Positions 6,065-64,000 of a stretch of 64,000 bases of DNA are shown piece after piece (the stretch's first letter is position 1; every line of letters starts with the position of its first letter). The stretch comes from Eledone cirrhosa (taxonomy: Eukaryota). The notes under the pieces were generated by a model. That model was not told the DNA's origin and searched no databases. It saw nothing but the letters and a program-made list of their open reading frames with translations. The translations under genes were made by a program, and so were the position numbers. Where the stretch lies: the NCBI GenBank assembly GCA_964016885.1, contig OZ024742.1:169260001-169324000 (forward strand). Reading direction: 5' to 3'.

Positions 6065-6932
6065 CAGGGTGAGGACGATATTTGTTCGCAATTTTCAACT
6101 GCTAATTTTATGCAAATTTTTTTTACTTCCGTTGTCACTCTTGTCTTCATAAAAACAGTGACTATATTTCCATTATTTATTTTCAGAATAATTGATTATG
6201 AATAATTTTGAACCTCCAAATTTGTGGAAGAGACACAGAGTTCTTCTTGGAATCTGCACCAGGAATACAAATAAGGAAATTTCAGACTTTCTCAGCGTCA
6301 GCAGGAAAATGGTGTCTCATCCAAAGACGTGCCCAGAGTCATGCAGACAAAGTTTCCAGAGACAACATTGGTCTTAGGTGTCGTCAGCAGTCAAGGTGAC
6401 GTCATGCCACCTCACTTCTTCCCTGAGGGCCTCAAGCTGAACACCGATGGCTACATCCACGTTCTGAGCGAGGTAGTAAAGCCCTGGATCGACCAGGTAG
6501 CTGCAGGTAGGCCGTATGTGTGGCAGCAAGACTCAGCGCCCTGCCATACCAGCCGAAAGACCCAAGCCTGGCTGTCAGAGAACTTCGTCGACCATACTTC
6601 ACCTGACTGCAACCACCTCGACTTCTTTGTGTGGGGTGCAGTGGAACAAGACACTAACAGATCTAGCTGCAATAAGAAAGACGATCTGAAGGCCAGGATC
6701 ACAAGTGCCTTTAGGGGCCTAAGTCGGGGGACAGTGACAAAGGCCTGTAGATGGTTCCGAGACCGCCTTGAGGCCGTCATCAAAGCCAATGGCGGGTTTA
6801 TCGAGTGAGATCGAAAGAACAAGTCATGAAGACAAACTGACTCAAGTTTGATAAATATATCTTAAAAAATAAAACTACTGTGTTATTATTTCCTAGACAG
6901 TAATCTTGCGAACAAATATCGTCCACACCCTG
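6065..6932 (+). mobile_element. Internally deleted Tc1/mariner (maT/DD37D-like) element
   Basis: TIRs cagggtg.ggacgatatttgttcgca at both ends with TA TSD; transposase remnant WQQDSAPCH..SPDCNHLDFFVW (ORF 6329-6808). Confidence 0.92.
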
Positions 6933-7499: not shown

Positions 7500-10400
7500 T
7501 CATCATCATTATCATTTAACGTCTATCTTCCACGCTAGCATGGGTTAGACAGGAATTGTCCCACTTGAGATAAGATTGATCGAGTGACCATGTCTCGCTC
7601 ATATAGGACTGTATCTGGCAGGTTTTCTACAGCTGGATGCCCTTTCTAACACCAACCACATTTATAATGTGGACTGGGAGCCTTTTTGCCGTGTCTTCTA
7701 CACGACCACTTTACAGCGTGGACTGGGTGCTTTTTGTCGTGACACCTACACAACCACTTTAGTGTGAACTGGATGTTCTGTGGTACCAACATAACTTTAC
7801 AGAGAAAAGATGGTGTGGGTGGGAGGATGGAGTAGGGGTAGTGGGTATATACAGATATAACTATATATATATGTATCACATGTCCATACCAACACAGTCT
7901 TCTCTCTTGCACACTACATCCAATTCCTCTTATGCCAATTTTTTCTCTCAGTTCCAATAAACTAAGTTGTTGTTCATGTACACTAAAGTTACACATCCAT
8001 TGGAGCATACTTCTTTCATTCCTTTCCAGTCTTTACAGGACTTCTGTAGTTAAAGCCCATGTTTCACTGCCGTGTAGCACTGCAATTCACACACAGGCAT
8101 CATATATTCCCTCTGAGAGAAAAGCCCTTTGTTGTCAGCAGAGATATCAGCTTCCAGCTTGTTCTGATCCTGACTATCACACTTTAAGTGCATCCTTCCC
8201 ACTACTAATTAGATTGTGTAGGTAACAAAAGCTGTCAACAACTTCTGAGGAGCCTCCCTGGCAACTGAAGAAATTTATTTCACATGAGTTCTTAGTGCTT
8301 ACTTCTATTGTGTATCTGCCACATACCAAGTCTATTTTTACTGTTAGCTTTCCTGCAATCCCACTACATCTTTTGTGTAGCCACAGAATACAAGGTGTGC
8401 ACCTTATAGAATTTCTGCCCACCTATTTCTCACATATTGAGCTAGGCCACTTTCATAGTGGTATCTACCTCCTGTCTTCTTTCCTACTTATTAAGACTTT
8501 CATATTTGCTAAGTTTACTTTTCAATTCTTCAATTCTTGGTTTTTCTTCCATGCTTGAAATTTTGCCTCTAACTCTCCTATAGATTCAGCTATAAGGACT
8601 AGGTCATCAGCATATATGAGTTTCCAAGGAGTGCCAGTTTTAAACTCCTCAGTGATGGCCAGAAAGACAATGACAAACAGAAGTGGTCTGAGGACTGAGC
8701 CCTGGTGGACCCACACTTGCACTTCAAATTCATCACTGTACTCATTGCCAATTCTCACTTTGCTGGTTGTACCTTTATACATGGCCCTCACAAGCCATTC
8801 ATCTACACTTAACTTTTTAAGTGCCCACAAGATTATACAGCATGGGACCCTAACAAAAGCCTTCTCCATATCTACAAAAGTCAGATACAGTGGCTTACTC
8901 TTAGCTATGTACCTCTCCTGTAGTTGTTTTACTAGAAAGATGGTATTGGTAGTATCCCAGTCTGGCATAAATCCAAATAACATTTCATCTAACTTTATTC
9001 TGTCCCTAATTAGTTGTACTATAACCCTTTCAGCAACTTTCATGACCTGGTCCATCAACTTGATGTCTCTGTAATTACTTCTCTCTAGTGCATCTCTAGT
9101 AGCAATTTATAATGATACTACTGCGCCAGTAATTGGGTATGACCCCTTCCTATACTATTTGATTAACTATGCTTGTGACTAGTTCATATCCTATTATGCC
9201 AGATGCTTATAGCATCTCAGCAACTAAACCAGATAGTCCAGCTGTCTTTCCTACCTTCATGTCTTTAATTGCTTTATCTAGCACACTGCTGTCAACCTTT
9301 ATAACTGGTCCCTTAGTTGGGTCTGAATGGAATAGGACATCGTTGTCCTATTTATTGTTTTCATTCAGCAGCCTTTCATAGTAAGTGTTCCATACCTCCT
9401 TTTCAGCATCAGACAGGGCAATTGCTCCACTATCATTTTAAATGCACTGCTCCACAAGCAGATCACAATTTTCTCTATTACACTGACTCGCAATCCAAAA
9501 TACTTCACACCACTGATCTTCACAATGCAGGACATGTGCAAACTTCTTTTCTGCTTCTGCCCTTGCTAGGTGTACCTGGCTTCTCTTCTAGCTATTTTGT
9601 ATTGCTCACTATTTTCACTTTTCCTCCAGTCTCTACAGGATTGTCATTTTGTTTTTATGGCTCTATCTAACTTATCATTCCACCACCACCTCACCTCCAT
9701 CTTGCTGTTACCTCGCTCCAACCACAGAACTGGTTTGTGGCTTCCAGTAGATTATCTCATAGGAATTCCCAATTTTTCTCAATGTTATATGTCTCCATCC
9801 CCCTCTGCCTTACTGTCAAAAGTGTCAAGTAAGATTTCTCTGAATTTGTTACCTGCAGCAGGCTCTCTTAGCTTCCAGGTCTTCCTTTACCAGACAGGCT
9901 TCTGTCTCTTAGTCCATCTAGCCCGTATTCTAAGATCCCTGACAACTAATCTATGTTGAGAGATATGTTCTTCCTCATGAAAGGCTTTGGCATTCACACC
10001 CATTTGCCTGTCTTGTTTCCTGGTGAGAATGAAGTCTGTAAGCGGACCTTATAGAACTGGTCTTTCTGCTTGTCTACCAGTCCAACTTGTGGGGTGTAAT
10101 GCAGATAGTATAGTGGCTGTTGTATTGCTCAAGGCTAGTCAAAGTTTAATCATTCTGTTACACACTCTAACTACTTCAATTACCTGGTCTACCCATCTCT
10201 TAGCTAGCATTCCTACTCTACCCATCTCATTATTGCTACCGACCCAGAAGAATTTGTAACAATGTTCCTTGCCTGTGATGAGTCTGGCTGAAGCACCCTT
10301 CCACACATCTACTCATCTCCTCTCTAGCATCTCCACAATCTCACCACACTTACCTTTCATTGTTCCAACATTGACAGTAATAAATCTTAAGTTCTGAGTT
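7500..10400 (-). mobile_element. Degraded full-length copy of the same RTE LINE family, with 3' UTR and (GAT)n tail
   Basis: ORF 8522-9058 (FVDMEKAF, HQGSVL, YADD), WLHKRCSG finger at 8177-8422, APE remnants near 10300-10400. Confidence 0.9.
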
Positions 10401-27693: not shown

Positions 27694-29533
27694 GAAGAAT
27701 GATAAAATTTCAAGCAAAGAGTTTAATTAGGTAATGACTTACAAATTTGTTTCAGTATATAGACAAAGCCTGAAGCGCTAATTATAATAATTAGTTAATA
27801 ATATTACAAAATATATTAATATTATATTAAATATATACTGAAACAAATTTGTTTAGCAGAAAGTTTCCAGACAAGAAACACGCATATTTTGCTATCCTCA
27901 AACACGTTTACACATGGCATGAAATATAACTAATCCGAGATGGCTAGGTTTCATCTTCTAACTGGATAAACGAAATCCATTATGTCTTGACAACAACATG
28001 AGGTAACATTATGTTATTCACAGACACACTTTGTACACTGTTCCATATCAGAATGTATTTCCTTCGTCACATTCACAAACAGTATTGAAAATATGTTCTT
28101 CGGCAAATAAAAATGTTTTGTTCATAATATTTCAACTAGCGATTGCTCTACTCCACGCACGACCACCATAAATTAATGACCAGCTCAACACAAGTATTGG
28201 TAGAGCGTCAGACACCATGCTTTGCAGTATTGTTATGGTCCTTTGCATTCTAAGTTCAAATCCTGCCGAGGTTAACTTCGACTTTCATACTTACTAATTC
28301 GATAAAATAAAGTACCAGTAATGGACTGCCGTAATGGATTTGTGCCGAAAAATAGAAACACTATTAATGTGCAATAAGAGCAAAATATAACGACATTGCT
28401 CAATTATTTTATCTAATGTTGTAATAACACAAGGAAATGTTGTTTGTGTATTTTTTTTTATATTTGCTCATAGGCTTTTACAATTTAGCTCAGCCAACAA
28501 CTATTAAAAAGTGAGTTGCTTAAGATAACAATTTAATCACAAATTGTTGCTATCTTTTAATACACACCAACAAGTCATCAAATTATGTACAATAAAAACA
28601 AATCTTATTAATTTGCTCAGGGAATATAAAGAAAATGTATATACACTGATAATTGCAATTGTATGTAAATATTTTGTATTTGTATTGTTTATTTTATGTC
28701 TTCTATTATGTATAATATATTGATTTAATATTGATTGTTTTTTGTAGTGTTTATATTAAAAGTCTGAAAATATTTTTATACATCTTACACTAATATTTAT
28801 AAGATAATTTATAATAACAATTACATAATCTAATTACATTACAACGATAATTTATTATTAATATATATCCTGTTTAACTAGAGTTATTACAAGCGTTGCC
28901 TTAAAAAAATATTAAACTAGACATGAAAAATGCACAAGCTCAAAAGTGCCACAGAATGTTATAATAAACCTTCAAAAGTGTGGGACTAGAGTTGTTGCTA
29001 AAAAATATTGTAATCATTATATATCGTACATTCTGTGGCATCCTTTATAAAAATAGCTTAAACCAACGAAGCCTTTATTTTTACGCTATTTCACTTAGTT
29101 AATTCTTAGAGTGTAACATATAAAAATAAATACATCTATGTTTAATGTAATAACAGCTATAAATAATTACGTAATATTATTATCATATACTCATAGTAAC
29201 AAAATAATTGTGTTGAAAATTAATATGATGCTTATATGAACGATCAAATCTATAATGATAATTTCTTAAATATACTAATAGTAAAATAATTTAGTTATCT
29301 ATTGTTACATTTTCATAGAACTATAATATTAACAATCGTATTGCATTATCAAATTTTTATCACTACAAACTTTCATATTGGAATTACCTTAAGCCACTTA
29401 TTATTACTTCGCTTTCGTACTTTTACAGCTGTAGATATTGCGCTGTATCTTATATCTAATATCAATATCTCATGGTAATTTGCATGCAGTGTAAAATAGG
29501 TTTATTAATAACTTTAATATGAAATGTATTATA

Positions 29534-29621
29534 CAGGGCTGCGGAGTCGGCTAAAAATTGACTGGCTCCAACTCAGGATCCGATACTCCATTATTTCCTA
29601 AATTTCAGCTCCGCAGCTCTG
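29534..29621. mobile_element. hAT-like mini-MITE
   Basis: TIR cagggctgcggag matched by ctccgcagctctg; near-identical 8-bp flanks gtattata and ttattata. Confidence 0.65.
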
Positions 29622-29822
29622 TTATTATATTAATTAATTTATTTTATAGTTGTAAATCATATTTTTATATGTTACACTCTAAGAATTAACTAAGTGAAAT
29701 AGCGTAAAAATAAAGGCTTCGTTGGTTTAAGCTATTTTTATAAAGGATGCCACAGAATGTACGATATATAATGATTACAATATTTTTTAGCAACAACTCT
29801 AGTCCCACACTTTTGAAGGTTT

Positions 29823-30005
29823 GGATTGGCAGTATCGGTAGAGGGTCTGACGCTATGCTTTGCAGCAAAGAGTTACGCCCCTTTATGGTTTGAGTTCAAA
29901 TCCCGCCGAGGTTAACTTTGCCTTTCATCCTTACGGGGTCGATAAAATAAAGTACCAGTAATACACTGGGATAATTGCTGGCCTTGTGTCTAAAGTAGAA
30001 ACAAT
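29823..30005 (+). mobile_element. tRNA-derived SINE with Meta-like core (representative copy)
   Basis: B-box gagttcaaatcc and core ttgcctttcatccttacggggtcgataaaataaagtaccag. Other copies at about 1558-1698, 2334-2465, 19150-19290, 28196-28365, 41812-41980(-), 58145-58335(-) and 59468-59652. Confidence 0.8.
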
Positions 30006-30515
30006 TATAACATTCTGTGGCACTTTTGAGCTTGCGCATTTTTCATGTCTAGTATAATATAGGTTAGTTTTATAAATAAATATTGACATACCCTTAAAAA
30101 ATGCAACCATTCTGGTTGGAATCTCCTGGATAGTGGAGTTATTAGATTTATTGTTGGTTTATTATGCAAATTAGTGTTGGAAAGGTATAAAACAGTATAT
30201 TTAAATTAAGTCGTTACTCTATATTTATTTTCTTCGTCTCTTCTCTCAAAATTACGCTATTCTCTCTCACTAAAATATACTCAGTTGTCTCTCTTTCTTT
30301 CTTTCCTTCATTTTTTCTCTTTCTTTTCTTTTTTTTTTTTATTTTCCCTATTCCAACAGCTTAATTTAAATATACTGTTTTAAACCTTTCCAACACTAAT
30401 TTGCATAATAAACCAACAATAAATCTAATAACTCCACTATCCAGGAGATTCCAACCAGAATGGTTGCATTTTTTAAGGGTATGTCAATATTTATTTATAA
30501 AACTAACCTATATTA

Positions 30516-30581
30516 TATTTTATCTGATGAAAGCGCACCATAGTTTTCTCTGGTGGCCCTTGAAATATGTATAATGAAATA
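30516..30581 (+). ncRNA. Hammerhead ribozyme candidate, family C
   Basis: tattttat-CTGATGA-aag cgc acca..tggt ggcc ctt-GAAA-tatgta-TA-atgaaata; 8-bp stem I with one G-U pair. Confidence 0.68.
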
Positions 30582-30621
30582 AATATGGTCTTATAAATAT
30601 AGTTTCCATTTGTTAATATAT

Positions 30622-30650
<29 letters not shown>

Positions 30651-30659
<9 letters not shown>

Positions 30660-30926
30660 TAGAATATTCGAAAATATTCTGTATGTTTATGATAAACATT
30701 TTGAAGACCTAATCGCTATAGAATAGAATACGTCACGTATTACAATTAGATTCTCGATAAAAGCAAGGGAAGTAATCTACGCGTTTCATTCTCGTTAGAA
30801 ATCATCAGGACTACATATCCAGTGCTTTTATCGAGAATGACACAGCTAGAGACTTATAGAATACTTAGCTGTGTACAGGAACTGGTTTGAAAGAGCGGTT
30901 GCCGGTCCGGCAGAAATTAGAAATTG
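30651..30926 (-). repeat. Inverted, nearly full copy of the 310-bp unit, with hammerhead at 30772-30814 on the minus strand
   Basis: Reverse complement of the array unit, directly abutting the array; (TA)n on its left. Confidence 0.9.
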
Positions 30927-32968
30927 AACGAGAATGAAACGCGTAGATTACTTCCCTTGCTTTTATCGAGAATCTAATTGTAATACGTGACGTATTCTAT
31001 TCTATAGCGATTAGGTCTTCAAAATGTTTATCATAAACATACAGAATATTTTCGAATATTCTATGTCTATATTCACATATATATCGCTATTTCAGAGCAT
31101 TTATTCCAATTTCTAATTTCTGCCGGACCGGCAACCGCTCTTTCAAACCAGTTCCTGTACACAGCTAAGTATTCTATAAGTCTCTAGCTGTGTCATTCTC
31201 GATAAAAGCACTGGATATGTAGTCCTGATGATTTCTAACGAGAATGAAACGCGTAGATTACTTCCCTTGCTTTTATCGAGAATCTAATTGTAATACGTGA
31301 CGTATTCTATTCTATAGCGATTAGGTCTTCAAAATGTTTATCATAAACATACAGAATATTTTCGAATATTCTATGTCTATATTCACATATATATCGCTAT
31401 TTCAGAGCATTTATTCCAATTTCTAATTTCTGCCGGACCGGCAACCGCTCTTTCAAACCAGTTCCTGTACACAGCTAAGTATTCTATAAGTCTCTAGCTG
31501 TGTCATTCTCGATAAAAGCACTGGATATGTAGTCCTGATGATTTCTAACGAGAATGAAACGCGTAGATTACTTCCCTTGCTTTTATCGAGAATCTAATTG
31601 TAATACGTGACGTATTCTATTCTATAGCGATTAGGTCTTCAAAATGTTTATCATAAACATACAGAATATTTTCGAATATTCTATGTCTATATTCACATAT
31701 ATATCGCTATTTCAGAGCATTTATTCCAATTTCTAATTTCTGCCGGACCGGCAACCGCTCTTTCAAACCAGTTCCTGTACACAGCTAAGTATTCTATAAG
31801 TCTCTAGCTGTGTCATTCTCGATAAAAGCACTGGATATGTAGTCCTGATGATTTCTAACGAGAATGAAACGCGTAGATTACTTCCCTTGCTTTTATCGAG
31901 AATCTAATTGTAATACGTGACGTATTCTATTCTATAGCGATTAGGTCTTCAAAATGTTTATCATAAACATACAGAATATTTTCGAATATTCTATGTCTAT
32001 ATTCACATATATATCGCTATTTCAGAGCATTTATTCCAATTTCTAATTTCTGCCGGACCGGCAACCGCTCTTTCAAACCAGTTCCTGTACACAGCTAAGT
32101 ATTCTATAAGTCTCTAGCTGTGTCATTCTCGATAAAAGCACTGGATATGTAGTCCTGATGATTTCTAACGAGAATGAAACGCGTAGATTACTTCCCTTGC
32201 TTTTATCGAGAATCTAATTGTAATACGTGACGTATTCTATTCTATAGCGATTAGGTCTTCAAAATGTTTATCATAAACATACAGAATATTTTCGAATATT
32301 CTATGTCTATATTCACATATATATCGCTATTTCAGAGCATTTATTCCAATTTCTAATTTCTGCCGGACCGGCAACCGCTCTTTCAAACCAGTTCCTGTAC
32401 ACAGCTAAGTATTCTATAAGTCTCTAGCTGTGTCATTCTCGATAAAAGCACTGGATATGTAGTCCTGATGATTTCTAACGAGAATGAAACGCGTAGATTA
32501 CTTCCCTTGCTTTTATCGAGAATCTAATTGTAATACGTGACGTATTCTATTCTATAGCGATTAGGTCTTCAAAATGTTTATCATAAACATACAGAATATT
32601 TTCGAATATTCTATGTCTATATTCACATATATATCGCTATTTCAGAGCATTTATTCCAATTTCTAATTTCTGCCGGACCGGCAACCGCTCTTTCAAACCA
32701 GTTCCTGTACACAGCTAAGTATTCTATAAGTCTCTAGCTGTGTCATTCTCGATAAAAGCACTGGATATGTAGTTCTGATGATTTCTAACGAGAATGAAAC
32801 GCGTAGATTACTTCCCTTGCTTTTATCGAGAATCTAATTGTAATACGTGACGTATTCTATTCTATAGCGATTAGGTCTTCAAAATGTTTATCATAAACAT
32901 ACAGAATATTTTCGAATATTCTATGTCTATATTCACATATATATCGCTATTTCAGAGCATTTATTCCA

Positions 32969-32974
<6 letters not shown>
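30927..32974 (+). repeat. 310-bp tandem array (about 6.6 units) with a hammerhead ribozyme in each unit; retrozyme or Penelope pLTR-like
   Basis: atatcgctat recurs at 31081, 31391, 31701, 32011, 32321, 32631 and 32941. Units are near-identical (one C>T seen, at 32774). CTGATGA cores at 31225, 31535, 31845, 32155, 32465 and 32775. Confidence 0.92.
31219..31261 (+). ncRNA. Minimal type-I hammerhead ribozyme (representative of 6 full copies in the array)
   Basis: gtagtc-CTGATGA-t ttct aacg agaa t-GAAA-cgcg-TA-gattac. Stem I gtagtc/gattac, stem II ttct/agaa, palindromic stem III ACGCGT; predicted cleavage after GUA at 31255. Confidence 0.8.
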
Positions 32975-33021
<47 letters not shown>

Positions 33022-33194
33022 TAGATAAATGTATATATATATGTAGATAAAAGGCCAAGGGAAACAATGCTTAATCTAGTGTAAGAGAGCTTATTTAGTA
33101 TATATTAAAATTTCATACACTTAACTTGTATGCACGATCTTAAGTTTGGGGTCCACTTATGACCACCATTGTATAGTGGCCTTTCTCATCTGAC

Positions 33195-34568: not shown

Positions 34569-34727
34569 CTAACTACCCCATACCCCTCCCACCCGCACAA
34601 ACTCGCCACCATTATTATTTGGACCAATCATAAGTCAGCGGCCTATGCTATCACTTCTCCTGGTTGCTTTTCGATATGATGGATGGACTAAGGAATTCTG
34701 GAGAGTCTGAAAAAATCTGAACACTCA

Positions 34728-37724
34728 GTGACAATGCCAAAGATAAAGACAAATTCACCTCATGCTGCCGGACGAAAAGTCAAGGACTCCTCCTCTTTGT
34801 TTCGGACGCGGAGGGCCAACATAACCCCAACCCCATCCCCCTCACCCCTCCCCGCGACCCACCGTTCCCAACCACCAAACGCAATCCAAAACTTCAGAGT
34901 TGGTACCATAAATGTAGGCACCTTAAAAGGTCGTTCTAACGACGTTGTAGAAATGCTTGAACGTAAGGAGGTTGATGTTTGCTGTATCCAAGAGACCAGG
35001 TGGAGGGGTGGGCCTGCTAGATTCATTGTGGGTAAAAAACGATGCTATAAGCTTTTCTGGGTGGGAAATGACAATGGGCTGGGTGGGGTAGGAATCATGT
35101 TAGCAGAAAAATGGGTAGATAAGATAATAGACGTAAATAGAGTGAACGACAGAATAATTAAAATAAGACTTGTCCTAAATAGAACTACTGTGACGGTAAT
35201 ATCTGCGTATGCACCCCAATCCGGACTGCCTGGCGCTATAAAAGACTCATTCTATGAGACATTGATGCTCACTACCTCCCAAATAACCGACAGTGACTAC
35301 ATAATTATTGCTGGCGACCTAAATGGTCACGTTGGACAACATTGTGACGGCTATGACGGAATCCATGGAGTCTACGGGTTTGGTACTAGAAATGAGGAAG
35401 GCTCCAGAATCCTGGAATTCTGTGACGCAAATAACCTAACTATCTGTAACACTAACTTAAAAAAATGAGACAATCACTTGATCACCTACAGATCAGGGGA
35501 ACACGCCAGTCAGATAGATTATATCCTTACCAGAAGACATGATAGAGTGTCTGTTGTAAACACTAAATCCCTCCCCCATGAAGAATGCACCTCCCAACAT
35601 AGACTCATAGTCAGCGACCTCATAGTCAGGACAAGGCATACTCGATAACAGAGGAGGACTATCCTCAGGAGAAAAATATGGAAGCTAAAGGACCCCACAG
35701 CCAGTAATAAATTTAAAAGCATATTACTTGATGCTTTCGACAATAAGGAAGAGTAATTAGAGTCGAACAATATAGAGGAACAGTGGGTATTCCTGAAAGC
35801 TAACCTGCTGAAGGCGGCAGATGAAGTCTGTGGCTGGAGCAGGCCTATAGCCAGGAGGAGAGTAACGTGGTGGTGGAACAGTAAGGTGGAGGAGTCAATT
35901 AAGGCCAAAAAGCAAGCTTGGAAAGTATGGCGGGATGGGGGAAGTAGAGAAGACTAGCAAGTGGCCAGGAGGGAAGCTAGGAGACAAGTGTACTTCGCAA
36001 GAAGGGAAGCAGAGGAAAGAAAGTACAAGCATGTTCTACAATGCGAGGACCAAAAACGTGAGGTGTTCAGGATTGCTAGGCAATGTGTCAAGGAAAACCA
36101 TGATATTGTTGGGGAGAAGTGTGTCCTTAATGATGATGGTGTACTTGCCATCACTGACGCTGATAAGAAAGTAGCTTGGAAGTGTCACTACGAAAGCTAC
36201 TAAAGGAGGAGAATAAATGGGAGAAAGACAGTCTCCCCCACATCGATCCAATAGAGGGACCAGCAGTGCTAGTTGAAGGTAGTGTAATAAGTAAGGCAAT
36301 CAAAGATATGAAGATGGGTAAGGCGGCTGGGCCTTCAGAAATAGTTGCTGAAATGCTGAAAGCATCTGGAACGGTGGGACACACTATGGTCACCCAGATA
36401 GTAAACCAAGTCATACAGAATGGGGTCGTTCCGAAGGACTGACGTAGCAGCATCATCATTAACTGCTACAAGGGTAAAGGAGATGCCCTGGATAGGGGTA
36501 ACTATAAAGGCAGTAAATTAATCGACCAGGTCATGAAGGTCACAGAAAAAGTAATAGTGCAACTAATCAGAGAGCGAATTGATCTAGATGAAATGCAGTT
36601 CGGGTTTGTGTCAGGTAAAAGTACCACAGACGTTCTTTTCATTGTACGACAACTACAGGAGAAGTACCTAGCTAAAGGTAAACCCCTATACTTAACTTTT
36701 GTTGACTTGGAGAAAGCCTTTGACAGAGTCCCCCGTTCCATTATCTGGTGGGCTCTTAGAAAACTAGGTGTTGATGAATGGCTTGTGAGAACTATATAAG
36801 CCATGTATAAAGAAACAGTCAGCAAGGTTAGAATTAACAACGAATATAGTGAAGAGTTTAGCGTAAAAGTTGGTGTTCATCAGGGCTCCGTTCTTAGCCC
36901 CCTACTATTTATTATTGCCCTTCAGGCTATAACAGAGGAGTTCAAGACCGGCTGCCCATGGGAACTCCTATACGCAGATGATCTAACGCTCATAGCTGAA
37001 TCAATGGCTGAACTAGAGAAGAAATTCCAAACATGGAAGCATAGCCTAGAATCAAAAGGCCTTAAAGTTAACTTGTCTAAGACTAAAGTTCTAGTTTGTA
37101 GGAAGGAAAATAGGGCACCGATCCCATGTGGCAAATGGCCATGCTGGGAAATGGCCATGTAGGAAAGGAGTAGGCAGAAACTCCATTTTATGTCCCAAAT
37201 GCAAAGTATGGGTGCATAAAAGATGTAGTGGGATCACAGGTAAGCTAACTAAGAATATAGATTTTATATGTGGCCGGTGCTCTGGTGCAATAAGTAGCAA
37301 CAAGTGCCCACAGAAGACTAGCTCATTCCATTGCACAGATGGTTCTATAGATATAGTGGACACGTTCCGTTACCTGGGTGACAAAATCAGCAGGGGGGGA
37401 GGGTGCTCTGAAAGTACAGTAGCTAGAGTCAGAACGGGATGGAAAAAGTTCAGAGAGCTTATACCACTATTGGCCGCTAAAGAGTTCTCTCTAAAAATGA
37501 AAGGCAGGCTGTATGATGCCTGCATACGAACAGCAATGTTACATGGCAGTGAGACCTGGGTATTGTGTGCAGAGGATATACGCAGACTGGATGTGTAATA
37601 ATAATATACGTGAACGGCAAAGCATAAACGAACTAAGGGAAAAATTAGGAATAAGAGGGATCAGATGTTGTTTACTCGAGAGAAGACTACGTTGGTATGA
37701 TCACATGATGCGCATGAAAGACGA
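34728..37724 (+). mobile_element. Near full-length RTE-clade LINE (APE endonuclease + RT + PHD-like finger), inactivated
   Basis: APE motifs (GTINVGTL, IQETRW, SAYAPQ, GDLNGHVG) and RT motifs (FVDLEKAFDRVPR, GVHQGSVLSPLLF, YADD, FRYLG); several stops and frameshifts. Confidence 0.95.
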
Positions 37725-38545
37725 CATCATCATCACATCATCATCACCGTTTTACATCCATTCTTCCACGCTAGCATGGGTTAGACGGGTTGTCCTGTTG
37801 TGGGCAGTGTCTGGTCGGCTGACCATGCCTTGCTCATACAGGAACTGATTTGGCTTGATTTCTACAGCTGGATGCCCTTCCTAACACCAACCTCATTTAC
37901 AGTGTGGGCTGGGTGCTTTTTCCGTGGCGCCTACACGTGCACTCTGCAGTGTGGGCTGGATGCTTTTTTGCCGTGGCACCTCCACGACCACCTTGCAGTG
38001 GGAGGGTGTGGGGGCATATTGTCTATATGCTTCAGCTTGTACGCATGGGAGGTCGGGTACTCTGTATTACTGCGTGATGCCAGAGGTCACGGTCGTGTGT
38101 CATCGCCTTTGAGAGGTGTAATTGGGTAAGGTCGGCTTTTATCACCTCATCCCAGGTCATCTTGGGTCTCCCCACTCCGCGGTTTCCATCGACTTCTAGT
38201 GCTCTACACCTTTTTATGCAGCTGTCATCCTTCATATGCATCACAGGTCCATACCAACGCATCCGCCTCTCCTGCACACAGCATCTGATTCCTCTTATGC
38301 TCAGTCTCTCAATTCATTTATGCTTTGTCGTTTGCGTATATTACTATTACACATCCATCGGAGCATGCAGGCTTCGTTTCTCTCTAATCTACGTAAGTCT
38401 TCCACCTTCAGCGCCCAGGTCTCACTACCATGTAACATTGCTGTTCGGATACACGCATCATACAGCCTTTCATTTTGAGGGAGAAGCCTTTTGCAGCTAG
38501 CAGTGGTAGTAGTTCCCCGAACTTCTTCCATCCCGTTCTTACGAC
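37725..38545 (-). mobile_element. 3' fragment of RTE LINE, tail-to-tail with the 34.7-37.7 kb copy
   Basis: LYDACIRTAMLHGSETW, RRMRWYG, GRPKMTW, followed by the 3' UTR (ggaagggcatccagc) and GAT tail. Confidence 0.88.
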
Positions 38546-38599
38546 AGTTGTATAAAAAAGTGCAGGGCGATAAAAATAGACGGTAGCCACGGAGTAGGC

Positions 38600-39097
38600 A
38601 AGCCCAGAAAAACCTGGGACGACTTGATAAATTCCGACCTCTCCAAGACAATGTCACTGGACCGAGATTTTTGGCGTTACACAGTAATACAGAAGACCCG
38701 CCTTGCCTAAGTACAAAGCGAAACCTACAGCCCGTAGGCACCTCTAACAAAACTACACCCTTGTCCCACTACCCCCACCCATCCACACCACCCCCTTCAA
38801 TGTGAAGTTATGTTGGTACCGCAACATCCAGTCCGAAACAAATGAGGTCGTGTAGGTGTCACAACAAAAAAAACACACAGTCCACGCTGCAATGTGGCCG
38901 TGTAGGTAACACGGTAAAAACCTCCCAGTCCACACTGTAAACGTGGTTGGTGTTAGGAAGGGCATCCAGCCATAGAAAACCTGCCAGACAGTCCTATACG
39001 AGCAAGACAACCAATCTTGCCTCAAGTGGGAAAACTCCCATCCAAACCCATGCAAGCGTGGAAGATGGACGTTAAACGATGATGATGATGATGATGA
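38600..39097 (+). mobile_element. RTE LINE 3' end (ORF tail, 3' UTR, (GAT)n)
   Basis: Same 3' UTR as 19848-20378 and 48895-49242. This tail recurs in many places, e.g. 10740-11010, 33555-34010, 46180-46400, 60815-60990, 63540-63797. Confidence 0.8.
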
Positions 39098-40006
39098 TAT
39101 ATATATACATGCACATATCACGATAATGATATACACATATATATATATATATATTTGCGTGCATATACATATACCTTATATATGTAATATACATACACAT
39201 ATCATACATATACATACACACTTCATATATATACGCACATATCAACCTCATCAATTAACATCCATCATTCATGGGTAGGACAGATTGACCCTTAGGCAAA
39301 AACATGTCAGAGGACCATGTTTAGCTCACCTGGGGCAGATTTTGGCTTTCTACAGCTGGGTGCCCTTCCTACCGCCAACCACATTTACCATGTGTGCTTG
39401 GTGCTTTTTATCATGTCACCTACACGACCACTTTACAGTGTGGACTGAACACTTTTGTCGTGAAACCTACATGACCTCTTTACAGTGTGGACTGGGCACC
39501 TTTGTCATGTTACCGACACGACCACTTTACAGTGAGGCCTAGGCATTTTTGTCTTGGGAGTAGGGAGAGGGGGAGGAAGCTTAGGGAATCTGTGATACTC
39601 TTACCCGGGACAAATCCAAACAGCATCTCATCTATGATAACCGCGTTCTCTAATCAGCTGATCTAAGAATCTTTCAGTGACCTTCATAACCTCATATATA
39701 TAACAAAATATCCCTCCATAAGAATACTAATTCTACCTTCGAGTATGAAACAGTGTGTAAGGAATAAAATTTGTTCTTAAAAGTCTTGTTTTCTCTATCT
39801 TATATTTCTGCTTTTATATATATATACATAGAGAGAGAGAGAGAGGAGAGACCACTAATCATGGGAGTACTCAATACATGGGAAGATGCAGAGTTAGCAT
39901 AGAGATAGGTAAAATCTCGACCACAGCAGCAAGTGGTTTCAGCTTGCGTGTTCATACAAGCCGAAACTGCTTGGCGCCAGCAATGCTTGAGCCTAAAGAT
40001 ACTTAC

Positions 40007-40096
40007 AAATCTGCTAGAGTTGTTATTCCGTACTGTTTTAGCATTTCCAAATGATTCCAACAAAGGATTGGATTCCAAAATGATTTCTTTCACCTT
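40007..40096 (-). CDS. MYO1E: Myosin-IE/F-like exon, switch I
   Basis: [30 protein letters not shown]; ttgcag acceptor, gtaagt donor; 90 nt. Confidence 0.97.
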
Positions 40097-41047
40097 CTGC
40101 AAAGAGGAAAGCAAAAAGAAAGAAAAGAATATACATAGATAAGAGGGAATGAATAATATCATATTGTACTGAATGGTGATGGTGGTTGTGGTGGTGGTGA
40201 TAGAGATACTGTTGTTGGTGGTAGTGGTGGTTGTGATAGTGGTGGTGGTGTCGGTGTGGTCATGGTGGTGGTGGTGGTGCTGGTACTGTTGTTGTTGTTG
40301 GTGGTGGTTGTAGTGTTGGCTGTGGTTGTGGTGGTATTGGTGGTGTTGGTGGTGTTTCTAAACACTGTAAATGTGGTTTGTGTTAGGAAGGACATCAGGC
40401 TGTAATACAGTTCCATTTGAGCATGGTATGGTGTGGTCAACTGGTTTTGATTGGGCTTTTACAGTTGCTGGATGCCCTTCCATAGTAGGACCATATTTTG
40501 GCTAGGTTTTGTGGTCGGTGGTTGCCCTTCCTAGCCCCAACCATGTTCACAGCACAGGAGCTGGATGGACCCATTATGAGGATGGTCTGACCAGTTGGCC
40601 GTGCCATACCTTGCCCATGGCAGGACCATGTTTTGGCTGGGTTTTTGTGTTTAGTGGATACCCTTTTTAAACACCAACTATGTTTTCAGCATGTGACTGG
40701 GTGGTCCCATTATGAGGCAAGTCTGGCCAGCTGGCCGCGCCATACCTTGCTCATTTTGGCTGAATTTTTATGACGCTGGATCCCCTTCCTAACACCAACC
40801 ACATCTACAGCTTAGAAAAACGGGACCGTGTTTTGGCTGGGTTTTTATGACTGCTGGATGTCCTTCCTAAGCCTCAGACATGTTTACAAAAATATAACCT
40901 TGTATTGGTTTAGAACCATACATAAGTACGTACGCACACACACACATTCATATATAAGAGATATACCATAATTTTTTAAGTGAGTATGGTCTCAAAAGGA
41001 GTTAATCTGGCCCTGTATATATCATAGCTAACTGGAAATATACTGAC

Positions 41048-44445: not shown

Positions 44446-45201
44446 GGAAGGAAGGAGGAAGAAAGGAAGGAAGGAAGGGAGGATAGATGGATGGATGAAT
44501 GGATAGGTAGATAGATGGATGAAGGATAGGTAGATAGATAGATAAATGCCCCATGTATTAATTTACAACTACAATGTACACATGAATATCGATCTCATAC
44601 TTTCCTTCACAAATCTTAGTCGACTTTTTGACTATATTAACACATTAAACATAGAGAGAAATAATACACAAACATCAAATTGAAACAAACAGACAGACAG
44701 AAAATGTTAGGCAGGTAAACAAACAGGTAAACAGACAGACCGGTAAACATATAGACAAACTGACAAGCAGGTAAACAGACAGACAGGTAAACAGACAGAT
44801 AGATAAACAGACATAGTGTGTTGTGAAAATGAGGTCAACAGACAGAAATAGAGAGATATTTTAAAGAATCAATAAGTGAGAGAGAGACAGAGAGATATAA
44901 AAAGAGACAGAGAGAGACAAACAAAGAGATAGAGAGGAAGATATACAGAAATAGACAGAGAGACAGACAGACAGTCAGACAGAGAGAGAGAGAGAGTGAG
45001 AGTAAACAAAGAGACACAGACAGACAGGCCGAGTGAGAGACAAGCAAAGACAAAGAGAGGGAGAAGGAGAGAGAGAAAGAGAGAGAGAAAGAGAGGGAGA
45101 GAGAGAGACAGAGAGAAAGAGAGAGAGGGAGAGAGAGGGAGAGAGAGAAAGAGAGAGAGATAGAGAGAGAGCAAGCAAATAATAGTAAAATGGTTACTCA
45201 C

Positions 45202-59458: not shown

Positions 59459-60310
59459 ATTATTGGTGAATTGGCAGTATCGGTAGAGAGTCGGACACCA
59501 TGCTTTCCAGCATAGTTACGTCCCTTTACGGTCTGAGTTCAAATCCCGTCGAGGTTAACTTTGCCTTTCATCCTTACGGGGTCGATAAAATAAAGTACCA
59601 GTAATGTACTGGGTAATTGCTGACCTTGTGCCAAAAGTAGAAACAATTATTATTAAAGGACTTGAACATCTGAAACTACTTCGCTTTTCCTTATTCTCTC
59701 TCTCTATATATATATATATATACACAGATATACACACATACATGCATAGTCATATTCTGGTATGTAGACATATATATTCACGAAAAACACACCATAAAAC
59801 AAAAGTCAAGATGGAGTAGAGGTTTAAGACAAGAAAGAAGAGGAGGCATAAAAGAGAACAAATAGTCATTGAGGAGGTCACAGAATGTGTGAAGAAAGAA
59901 GTTTGATGAACAAATGAATAACAAACAATAAAGATAAAGTGAAAATCATACGGTACAAGTGTTTCTTTTTATAGGCTATATTGGCAACATGACCATCCCT
60001 AAATATAACAATGTGTGTGTGTGTGCGTGCGCTACATTGTAATGCCCAACGGATGAGATCTTGCCATTTTGATGGTGAATGGATAACCAAATTATTTTTT
60101 CACATTCCCATGTATCAGGTATCTAGCTGAACGATGATCTTAGTAATCTAAATTCTCAATCTCAATCTCTCTCTCTCTCCTTCTCACTCTCTATCTTTCT
60201 ATTTCCTCTTTTATCGCTGATTCTATCTTATTCTGAAGAACTAGTATCTGAAGCATTAACATTATTTAGCTACTACATCAAATATACATATATATATATG
60301 AATGTATATA

Positions 60311-60590
60311 TAGTGTATTTTGCAATACACTGTATGCTTAATTAAAAGCATTTCGAAGACCTTATGCTATTGTTTTAGAGTAGTGACAGTCTCACTTACT
60401 TTAAATTTTCAGCAAACAGGGGAGATAAAGCTGACAGAGCTATGTTTCGTACTGATTGGTACTTATCAAAACCAAGTACTCCACCTGTCTGCTGAAAATC
60501 ATGAATGTTTGATTCTTATAGAATTTCTAGTAATAATCAGGAACTGATTATACAGAGCGGTTGCCAGTCAAGCAGAAATTGAAAATTAGA
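60311..60590 (-). repeat. Diverged monomer related to the 310-bp hammerhead unit
   Basis: Colinear anchors shared with 30651-30926 (gaagacct, cttatagaat, caggaactg, agagcggttgcc, gcagaaatt) and a degenerate hammerhead TTGATAA-gtac..gtac-GAAAC..GTC. Confidence 0.7.
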
Positions 60591-60597
60591 ATTGGTC

Positions 60598-61704: not shown

Positions 61705-63165
61705 ATCATCATCATCATTTTACGTCCGCTTTTCCCTGCTTGCAAGGGTAGGACAGGTCCTATTCAGCATAGCATCTCTCCACTTGTCACGGTCCTTCGT
61801 CATCTCCTCCGTGAGCTTCAGCAAACTGAGGTCTGCTCTCACCACCTCCGCCCATGTTTTTCATGGTCTTCCTCTACTACGTCTTCCTTCTACTGGGATT
61901 TCTTGGCACTGCTTTACCCATCGGTCATCCTCCATGCGCATCACATGTCCATACCATCACAGTCTTCTCTCCCGCTCATGCACATTGACATTGCATATCC
62001 AACGGATTTCTCTCCAGCCATCGCCCATGTCTCACTACCATGCAGCATCGCACACCTCACACAGGCATCATATAACCGGCCTTTTGTACGCAGGGAGAAA
62101 CCCTTCTTTGTCAGCAGAAGAAGCAGCTCCCTAAACTTCTTCCAACCTGTCTTTATTCTAGATACTATGGCCTCAGAACACCCCTCCCATGCTAATCTGA
62201 TCACCTAGGTACCAGAAGCTATCAATCACTTCTATAGCATCTGCCTGCATTTAAAAGATGCACCTATCAATGCGACTTCTACTGTCAAATTTCCCTGTAC
62301 ATCTACTGCATACGTTTTTTTCCCTACCTGTTAGTCTGTTCCCACTGCTATCCCACTACATCTCTTGTGTACCCAAGATCTGCATTGTGTATATTTTATA
62401 GAATTTATGCCAGTTCTTTTTCTGCATATCAAACATGGCCATTTCCCTGACGGAATCAGAGTTTTGTCCTCTTTTCTACTCATCAACACTTTTGTCTTAG
62501 CTAGGTTCACTTTCAGTCCTCTTAATTCAAATTGCTGTTTCCATAACCAGAATTTATTCTCTAACTGCTCTACTGATTTTGCTATAAGAACCAGATTGTC
62601 AGCATAGAGAAGTTCCCATGGGCAGCCAGTCTTAAATTCCTCCGTTATGGCTTGGAGGACTATAATGAACAAGAGCGGGCTGAGGACCGAACCCTGATGT
62701 ACTCCTACTTGTATCTGGAATTCCTCACAAAACTCCATTCCTACCCGCACTTTACTGACAGCACCTCTGTACAAAGCTTGCACTGTCCTCACAAGCCATT
62801 CCTCAACACCTAGTTTCCTTAGGGACCACCAGATGACAGATCGAGGTACCCTATCAAAGGCCTTCTCTAGGTCAAAAAAAGCTAAGTATAGTGGCTTATT
62901 CTTCTCTAAGAACCTCTCTTGTAGTTGTCTCACTAAGAAGAGGGCATCTTTTGTACTTTTCCCAGGAACAAAACCAAACTGCATCTCATCTAGTTTGACC
63001 CTTTCTCTAATTAGTTGCGCTAATATTCTTTCTGCCACTTTCATAACCTGATCCATCAGTTTTATGCCCCTATAATTGCTCTGCTCCAGAGCATCCCCTT
63101 TACTTTTGTAGCAATTTATGAGAATACTGCTGCACCAGTCTTTGGGTATGACACTGCCATTGAAT
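61705..63165 (-). mobile_element. RTE LINE fragment (RT + finger + C-terminus)
   Basis: ORF 62331-63056 with DLEKAFDRVPR, GVHQGSVLSPLLF, YADN and WPCLICRK..WVHKRCSG. Confidence 0.93.
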
Positions 63166-63169
63166 GGTG

Positions 63170-64000
63170 TAATTGTGCAAGGTCAGATTTTATCATCTCA
63201 TCTTAAGTCTTCCTGGGTCTCCCTACTCCATAGCATCCATCAACTTTGAGTGCCCTGCACCTTTTTATACAGCTGTCATTTTTCATATGTGTCACATGTC
63301 CATATCAACGCATTCTCTTCTCCTGCACACCCTGTCTGATCCCTCTTATGCCTAGTTTCTCTCTCAGTTCATTTATCCATTGAAGCATGCAAGTTTTGTT
63401 TCTTTCCAATCTTTGCAGGTCCTCTGCACACAGTGCCGAGGCCTAACATTGCAACATTGCTGTTCATTTTGAGGTAAACCCTTTTGTAGCTAGCAGTGGT
63501 AGTAGCTCCCTGAACTTCTTCCATATATCTATATACACACACTGTAAAGTGGTCGTGTAGGTGTCATGACAAAAACACCCTATCCTCACTGTAATGTGGT
63601 CATGTAGGCATCTCAACAAAAAGCACCCTGTACTCACTGTAAATGAGGTTGGAGTTAGGAAGGGCATCCAGCTGTAGAAACCAACCCAAAATCAGTCCTG
63701 TATGAGCAAGACATGGTCATCTGACCTAGCATTGCCCACAACAGCACAACTCATCTAGGCCGTGATAGCCGGGAAGAAGGAACAGTGATGATGATGATAT
63801 ATATATATATATATACATCCATGTAGCAGAAGCTACTTGGGTGACCAAATTAGCAGTTGAGGTAGGTGTTCTGAAAGTACAGAAGCCAGAGTGAGAACAG
63901 GATGGAAGAAGTTCAGGGAGCTACTACCACTGCTAGCTACAAAAGGGCGTTCCCTCAAAATGAACAGCAATGTTCCATGGTAGGTAGGCCTCGGCACTGT
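63170..64000. mobile_element. Cluster of short RTE 3' fragments in both orientations
   Basis: WKKFRELLPLLATKG on minus (63464-63525) and plus (63895-63960), with a 3' UTR copy between them. Confidence 0.7.

Follow-up and report, generated by a model that had tools for sequence, protein, structure and literature searches.

We read the 310-bp tandem array in the window (the whole 64-kb stretch of DNA that was analysed) as an insertion of a young non-LTR retrozyme that moves as a non-autonomous Penelope-like element (PLE). Its transcripts would be cleaved as dimers, the monomers circularized, and the circles copied by rolling-circle reverse transcription from both nicked strands of the target. 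We assign this reading as a whole a probability of about 0.6. That the family is a retrozyme with a selected ribozyme can be stated with high confidence, and its mobilization by a PLE is very probable; a monomer circle is probably the template, and we lean toward twin priming on one RNA. The strongest evidence is an inverted arm together with fixed ends, both overlooked in an earlier description made from the letters of the window (hereafter the sequence-only reading).

The long arm of the insertion lies on the plus strand at 30927..32975 and contains 6.6 units with a period of 310 bp. The units are nearly identical, the sole substitution being 32774 C>T; array, unit number and substitution, all reported in the sequence-only reading, were re-found. 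We numbered the unit from the first base past the predicted cleavage site (31256 = 1), and on this scale the long arm ends 3′ at site B (unit 170). The (TA)n target tracts occupy 30626..30655 on the left and 32974..33042 on the right. The array had been described as lying between such tracts, which holds for the right side but not for the left, where an exact 276-bp inverted copy intervenes. This inverted arm (30651..30926, minus strand) begins 5′ at unit 162 and ends 3′ at site A (unit 127), and its 3′ end can be aligned up to unit 139 inside the TA tract. The two arms meet head to head at 30926..30927 (unit 162 against unit 292) in a blunt junction without overlap. From left to right the insertion thus passes from (TA)n through the short minus-strand arm, the junction and the long plus-strand arm into (TA)n again, and when both insertion flanks were examined for a target-site duplication they consisted of (TA)n. 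No open reading frame of 130 aa or more overlaps the array, which is thus non-coding. Within one plus-strand unit, site A (unit 123-139), the tail and site B (unit 160-170) fall at 31378..31425, A and B being two putative start sites of reverse transcription. Two hairpins just upstream of site A (31334..31372, plus strand; 31334-50 and 31353-72) show compensatory change in sister families and are a candidate protein-binding signal. The predicted self-cleaved monomer or circle corresponds to 31256..31565 on the plus strand (310 nt, 34% G+C).

The insertion sits inside an intron of about 17 kb in a minus-strand myosin gene (window about 12,500-45,300), whose head-domain exons were recognized by Pfam near 45,200, 22,550 and 12,800; an exon assigned from the open reading frames lies at 39,800-40,357 and has no Pfam match. 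The myosin host transcript would carry one sense ribozyme without a partner and a perfect hairpin of 276 bp. The flanking repeats of the window have what we take to be a cephalopod-like appearance. At 6275-6808, 8522-9106, 34692-38768 and 62331-63182 there are fragments of a Tc1/mariner-like transposase (recognized by eye, without a Pfam match) and LINE reverse transcriptase fragments, of which the one at 62331-63182 matches RVT_1. A different hammerhead-like motif, seen by eye and missed by our descriptor, lies just left of the TA tract on the plus strand (30516-30625). It sits in nested inverted repeats (183, 163 and 57 nt; region 28902-30537), similar motifs occur in loci L034 and L038, and the element that carries it is probably another non-autonomous PLE with the common TA target.

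All six full units of the long arm contain an intact plus-strand hammerhead core (31225, 31535, 31845, 32155, 32465 and 32775) with the invariant features of type I, namely CUGANGA, GAAA and UH, three helices and an open helix I. The first complete type I hammerhead spans 31219..31261 on the plus strand, with predicted cleavage after 31255. It consists of stem I (31219-24 with 31256-61), the core (31225-31), stem II (31233-44) on a U.U pair (31232/31245), and palindromic stem III (31249-54). In unit coordinates, helix I pairs 274-279 with 1-6, the core occupies 280-286, and the U.U pair, helix II, GAAA, helix III and GUA follow. The geometry is thus a 6-bp stem I, a 4-bp stem II above the U.U pair, a 2-bp palindromic stem III and a GUA triplet. 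A seventh type I hammerhead lies in the inverted arm on the minus strand (30772..30814; C3 at 30808, predicted cleavage after 30778). Helix I is extended by a 3-bp distal helix and a 16-bp basal stem, which around the first complete ribozyme joins 31195-31210 to 31268-31283 on the plus strand and recurs every 310 bp. The sequence-only reading was therefore right about the ribozyme with palindromic stem III and GUA in every full unit, the 16-bp stem around the core, and the further hairpins it listed. Its term "minimal hammerhead" does not apply: the minimal form found in PLE pLTRs lacks helix III and has shortened helices, whereas helices of 6, 4 and 2 bp fit the "canonical" sizes described in PMC4209133.

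A lax hammerhead descriptor found exactly seven motifs in the 64-kb window and matched a single one of 20,000 dinucleotide-shuffled units; since its stem III test permitted overlap, chance matches are at most this frequent. An Rfam search of a 3-kb stretch returned nothing hammerhead-like, only TA-repeat microRNA noise. Rfam comparison of 101 nt, a check the sequence-only reading had proposed, gave Hammerhead_HH9 as the best match at 15.8 bits (E 0.1), which falls far short of the gathering score (52) but aligns the core correctly. The sequence is highly self-paired, with a fold z of −5.13 for the 95-nt ribozyme region and −4.07 for the monomer. For 399 nt spanning two cores, the minimum-energy structure is the double hammerhead. 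The circular 310-nt monomer, whose folding had also been proposed, does not form stem III (probability 0) and forms stem II with a probability of 0.15. Because the dimer fold is the minimum-energy structure while helix III has zero probability in the circular monomer, these models predict that multimers should be cut and circles spared. The U.U mismatch, entered as a caveat in the sequence-only reading, has a published functional precedent in axolotl HHR_Amex2, which combines a U.U base pair with a 2-bp helix III and cleaves weakly as a monomer and well as a dimer (PMC7229834). Counting against the prediction, 8 of 9 predicted retrozyme dimers of Xenopus failed to cleave in vitro (bioRxiv 2026.07.22.740005).

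We examined covariation in an alignment of seven copies from six sister families, using 28 pairs: 11 of the basal stem, the 3-8 pair, three of helix II, and those of the two 3′ hairpins. This count omits helix I, helix III and the first hairpin, which were poorly aligned or had pairs that were not kept. The paired state was found in 96.8% of 188 cells, with both sides changed in 15 of the 28 pairs; none of 500 shuffles reached this level, and partners slid along the sequence paired in 35-51%. The reference structure came from the copy in the window, and seven related sequences are few. Five of the seven aligned copies have U3-A8 in place of C3-G8, a variant known in Schistosoma PLEs (PMC4209133). 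Among 57 loci of the main subfamily the core is invariant in all 57 save at N7 (13 loci) and for U10.1>A (9 loci), the latter turning U.U into A-U and so repairing the pair; 17 loci, chosen by a 29-nt motif, were thereby preselected for the 3′ half of the core. The core and stem II of the 310-bp family are identical at 23 of 25 nt to those of an otherwise unrelated mini-element, and judging by this sequence likeness, the C3-G8 core may be a module swap instead of the product of stepwise covariation.

The sister families were reached through weak matches of the 310-bp unit. A single copy of one of them lies in the window at 60290..60595 on the minus strand, with a unit of about 321 bp and a U3-A8 hammerhead, and ends at its own site A. 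Its family (L059-L088; 1,470 first-look candidates) has a G-C pair at the base of helix II, a GUC triplet, and about 97% identity among copies. Further families were found at L032, L036, L037 and L040.

The 29-nt ribozyme motif has 16,397 exact matches (8,248 + 8,149) in the 3.0-Gb genome, with none for the control, and the 310-bp family makes up about 5 Mb (0.17%). Forward-strand counts of the end patterns were 734 and 1,068, from which we estimate about 1,500-2,000 loci, or recent insertion events; reverse counts were inflated by a variable gap, and the second pattern also strikes some internal units. We fetched 63 loci, two of them with N gaps, and 57 belong to the main subfamily; the variant counts omit the six that were more than 3% divergent or had fewer than 200 positions. 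Within loci, 117 of 157,615 bases (0.07%) deviate from the locus majority, whereas the divergence from one locus to another is 0.91%; of 1,596 locus pairs, 120 are identical. Such uniformity inside a locus, set against the variety among loci, fits a single-unit bottleneck. In 68 of 71 tests a variant was the same in both arms; the one clear exception is L137, where unit 276 is A in one arm and G in the other. Private variants are fixed in every unit of both arms in the window (C87) and in L121, L123, L126 and L133. Agreement between arms and fixation of private variants mean that all units of both arms came from one unit-length template or from one dominant source. A few variants recur in two or three units of long arrays (L122, L126, L127), which indicates some local duplication; L119 shows a double inversion, and L135 is a duplicated locus beside an assembly gap. 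An apparent signature of A-to-I editing, an A>G excess in 23 loci, proved not significant once 57 loci were counted, with five A>G sites and two T>C sites (p 0.26). Contigs from independent runs carry the unit too: all 4 of 4, which are coded as four organisms, contain it at 99% identity, and the tandem joint is present in three. Among six runs found to contain the sequence, none is recorded as RNA, a result uninformative about expression. The family is young.

The ends of the arms follow a strict pattern. In the ribozyme sense, 3′ ends lie either at site A (about unit 123-139, blurred by TA-like sequence) or at site B (160-172), about 30 nt apart, and run into (TA)n, while 5′ ends are scattered. 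Since 3′ ends are fixed and 5′ ends random, reverse transcription appears to start at A and B on the ribozyme strand. Among loci picked by the ribozyme motif alone, each of the 16 typeable two-armed loci combined an A end with a B end. When we took all A and B ends in the first 86.8 Mb of contig C1, the 37 divergent pairs within 12 kb comprised 21 AB, 16 BA and no AA or BB, a result of 37/37 mixed pairs that was reached in 0 of 200,000 label shuffles. One internal A match was taken out before pairing, and 19 of 93 ends were left unpaired. Inspection of 17 of these 19 revealed six in A/B loci whose mate had been missed by the pattern, ten single arms, one end at a gap, and no rule-breakers. The 63 fetched loci, 28 of them drawn from the paired list, gave 50 adjacent arm pairs (one counted twice through the L135 duplicate), of which 48 were A+B and two untypeable (a 33-bp arm and an internal rearrangement); 14 of the 63 were single-armed. 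Mixed ends were likewise found in 9 of 9 typeable loci among 14 two-armed loci of the sister family, and in 46 of 46 paired loci of an autonomous Hydra-clade PLE family, in which 91 of 183 ends were unpaired.

Arm lengths are unranked. The B arm was longer in 25 of 48 pairs and the A arm in 23, with medians of 1,037 and 1,348 bp and lengths up to 8,459 bp; a tendency for the B arm to be longer (12 of 16 early loci) disappeared as loci were added. This lack of ranking excludes a scheme in which the same arm is always made first and the other copied back from it. Junctions were near-symmetric (within 30 nt) in 16 of 50 pairs, which is above chance (p 0.03; positions approximate), and asymmetric in 34, and fold-back may contribute in some events.

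From these footprints and from published retrozymes and PLEs we propose the following course of events. A multimeric plus-strand transcript would be cut by paired hammerheads, in which two neighbouring palindromes form a 6-bp stem III. The 310-nt monomer would then be circularized by a host ligase and, being alone and without stem III, would be spared further cleavage. A PLE protein with reverse transcriptase and GIY-YIG domains, which probably acts as a dimer and probably belongs to a (TA)n-targeting clade (Hydra or Neptune), may bind the hairpins upstream of site A and nick both (TA)n strands. One nick would prime cDNA synthesis at A and the other at B on the same RNA circle, with a variable number of turns each, and joining of the two cDNA 3′ ends would leave two head-to-head arms. 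The most specific form of this model, in which each insertion is one event with one subunit of a dimeric PLE enzyme at each start site, both reactions rolling round a single ribozyme-made circle, we rate at even odds. The sequence-only reading had already proposed a non-LTR retrozyme spread by rolling-circle reverse transcription, a proposal now supported by the fold, the covariation, the contrast of within- and between-locus diversity, and abundant intact PLE open reading frames.

Candidates for the enzyme source exist in the genome. The autonomous Hydra-clade PLE family has intact 785-aa open reading frames (17,150 candidates, of which the best 150 were scored), which Pfam failed to recognize and which were assigned to the clade from the RWK, DKT and CxCx5C motifs given in PMC8557442. 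Two Hydra-clade families look active (L033:845-3199; L028:9277 to L029:1739), with intact open reading frames and hammerhead-like pLTR motifs. Their end sites are about 114-118 and 83 nt apart, far beyond the usual 30-40-bp tail, and their pLTRs have no similarity to the 310-bp unit. No pLTR similarity was found either at 20 of the 150 listed GIY-YIG loci, chosen for long open frames, a sample covering a minority of the families. A match at L237 proved to be a separate mini-element beside a Neptune-like pLTR and not the pLTR itself. Around 60 sister-family loci, the only adjoining Hydra open reading frame was one decayed neighbour (L086). Several PLE families called Neptune-like from the motif description in PMC8557442 (L219-L238) have a CX2-5CxxC linker, CCHH-type GIY-YIG open reading frames, and pLTRs with U3-A8 hammerhead-like motifs. 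A young mini-element of about 130 bp (L239-L248, e.g. G000:C23:10738016-10738190; L237:1730-1926) gave 351 candidates, the best 40 of which scored 98-100%. It begins at a fixed 5′ end with a type I hammerhead (by eye, with a 5-bp helix I and a 4-bp helix III) whose core and helix II are those shared with the 310-bp family, and it has neither tandem copies nor an open reading frame. Its single-copy arms meet head to head at the 5′ end within (TA)n in 8 of 10 loci. Single-copy arms are what is expected if a linear template yields one copy per arm and a circle many.

The alternative that calls for the most attention keeps the same element and a PLE enzyme but has an uncleaved linear multimer as the template, or has the second arm made by fold-back or self-priming and then trimmed by endonuclease to leave the tail, the ribozyme being dispensable for insertion. 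In the anole PLE, hammerhead mutants had no effect on insertion and unprocessed RNA was the main substrate (PMC11167929), self-priming has been suggested from palindromic junctions (PMC3846280), and the 16 of 50 near-symmetric junctions here, some of which use the 16-bp stem, point the same way. A copied-back arm, however, cannot outgrow the first, yet either arm may be the longer, and 34 of 50 junctions are asymmetric. As for a linear multimer, a homogeneous donor array would also yield homogeneous daughters, but the private variants fixed in all units need at least one single-unit bottleneck, and minority-variant patterns common to loci are absent save for junction artefacts and two single sites. 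On balance we consider this alternative unlikely, though with appreciable weight.

The remaining explanations fare worse. In one, a pLTR-derived seed inserted once and was then amplified at the DNA level by unequal crossing-over, conversion or extrachromosomal DNA circles, with the ribozyme as a passenger. DNA-level amplification is discussed for vertebrate retrozymes (bioRxiv 2026.07.22.740005), and the variants shared by two or three units and the duplicated L135 locus agree with it; it leaves unexplained fixed 3′ with random 5′ ends, the one-A-one-B rule, the ribozyme covariation, and identical haplotypes in opposite arms at 0.07% divergence, and we judge it improbable. Mobilization by other machinery, a LINE or a rolling-circle DNA transposase, is more doubtful still. 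LINE twin priming also produces inversions, and both the window and the loci contain LINE reverse transcriptases, but there is no poly(A) or 3′ repeat tail, and two internal end sites with (TA)n targeting are PLE traits common to the autonomous PLE family of this genome. Perfect tandem and inverted repeats are prone to assembly errors, and two fetched loci have N gaps; an artefact is nevertheless hard to credit against locus-specific haplotypes and junctions in 63 loci and the recovery of the unit in every independent run, and so is a chance motif given the shuffle result above. The reading that we prefer is a retrozyme copied from both target strands by a PLE enzyme.

In its units the 310-bp family resembles the animal non-LTR retrozymes of Cervera and de la Pena 2020 (PMC7229834; coral, mussel, axolotl HHR_Amex1/2, and newt satellite 2). 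These likewise have 150-450-bp tandem units of low G+C, one type I hammerhead per unit, a weak palindromic helix III, a self-paired circle and co-existing PLEs, and HHR_Amex2 also shares the U.U at the base of helix II. The sequence features of this class were all found here: a 310-bp tandem repeat, 34% G+C (<50%), a hammerhead in each unit, no coding capacity, and dispersal. The published retrozymes differ in that their expression and cleavage were demonstrated, whereas for the 310-bp family both are predicted. The searched text of PMC7229834 has no mention of inverted, tail, opposite, head-to-head or microsatellite. Li, Clavereau and Pollet 2026 (bioRxiv 10.64898/2026.07.22.740005) describe similar unit sizes and repeat numbers and the same hypothesis of a non-autonomous PLE partner, so the retrozyme-PLE link had already been proposed there and in PMC7229834. 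Their case is built on vertebrates, where retrozymes and PLEs co-occur and show pLTR homology, and they discuss satellite-like amplification at the locus; ours is based on the insertion footprint, pLTR homology having not been found; tail, twin priming and head-to-head arms go unmentioned in the searched portions of that preprint.

In its insertions the family resembles PLEs, which have a 30-40-bp tail, often at one end only, and an inverted 5′ copy (PMC8557442; PMC3846280). The corresponding footprint here is a tail of about 30 nt at one end, an inverted 5′-truncated copy, and a microsatellite target. Compared with the Hydra-clade PLEs of Craig et al. 2021 (PMC8557442) and the Adineta Penelope (PMC3846280), the 310-bp family lacks an open reading frame, both of its arms are multi-unit, and its tail rule is strict and counted. 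Non-autonomous Chlamys elements such as MRC1 (PMC8557442) are likewise non-autonomous PLEs with multicopy head-to-tail insertions. The in vitro study of anole Poseidon by Frangieh et al. 2024 (PMC11167929) likewise reports two start sites inside the element, downstream of the hammerhead, which mark off the tail; it also reports nicking and extension of both strands, AT-rich targets and a predicted dimer. Poseidon differs in that its start sites have no strand preference and the ribozyme is not needed; whether an insertion combines one start on each strand is a question that the study did not take up. Our literature search, which did not extend to subscription papers and supplements, found no paper on the 310-bp family or on a strict one-of-each rule, and the searched portion of an octopus repeat paper (PMC13282606) leaves ribozymes unmentioned.

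The kind of element is therefore known, but its two-arm footprint is absent from the searched text of the two retrozyme papers (PMC7229834, bioRxiv 2026.07.22.740005). This footprint suggests that a PLE-type enzyme runs repeatedly round a single small RNA circle, primed simultaneously on the two DNA strands. How retrozyme circles re-enter genomes and how PLEs form inverted repeats and tails are stated to be open questions in PMC7229834, PMC8557442 and bioRxiv 2026.07.22.740005, and the unusually legible insertion footprint makes these two mechanistic questions testable. In about 1,500-2,000 recent insertions the ends, the lengths of the arms and the haplotypes can be tallied, and the existing in vitro PLE assay gains a defined 310-nt substrate for which two start sites are predicted. 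Every two-armed copy is also a long perfect inverted repeat, that of the window lying in a myosin intron. If true, our reading would provide direct genomic evidence of rolling-circle reverse transcription of animal retrozymes, and one rule, valid too for the autonomous elements here, would explain both inverted pLTRs and the one-sided PLE tail.
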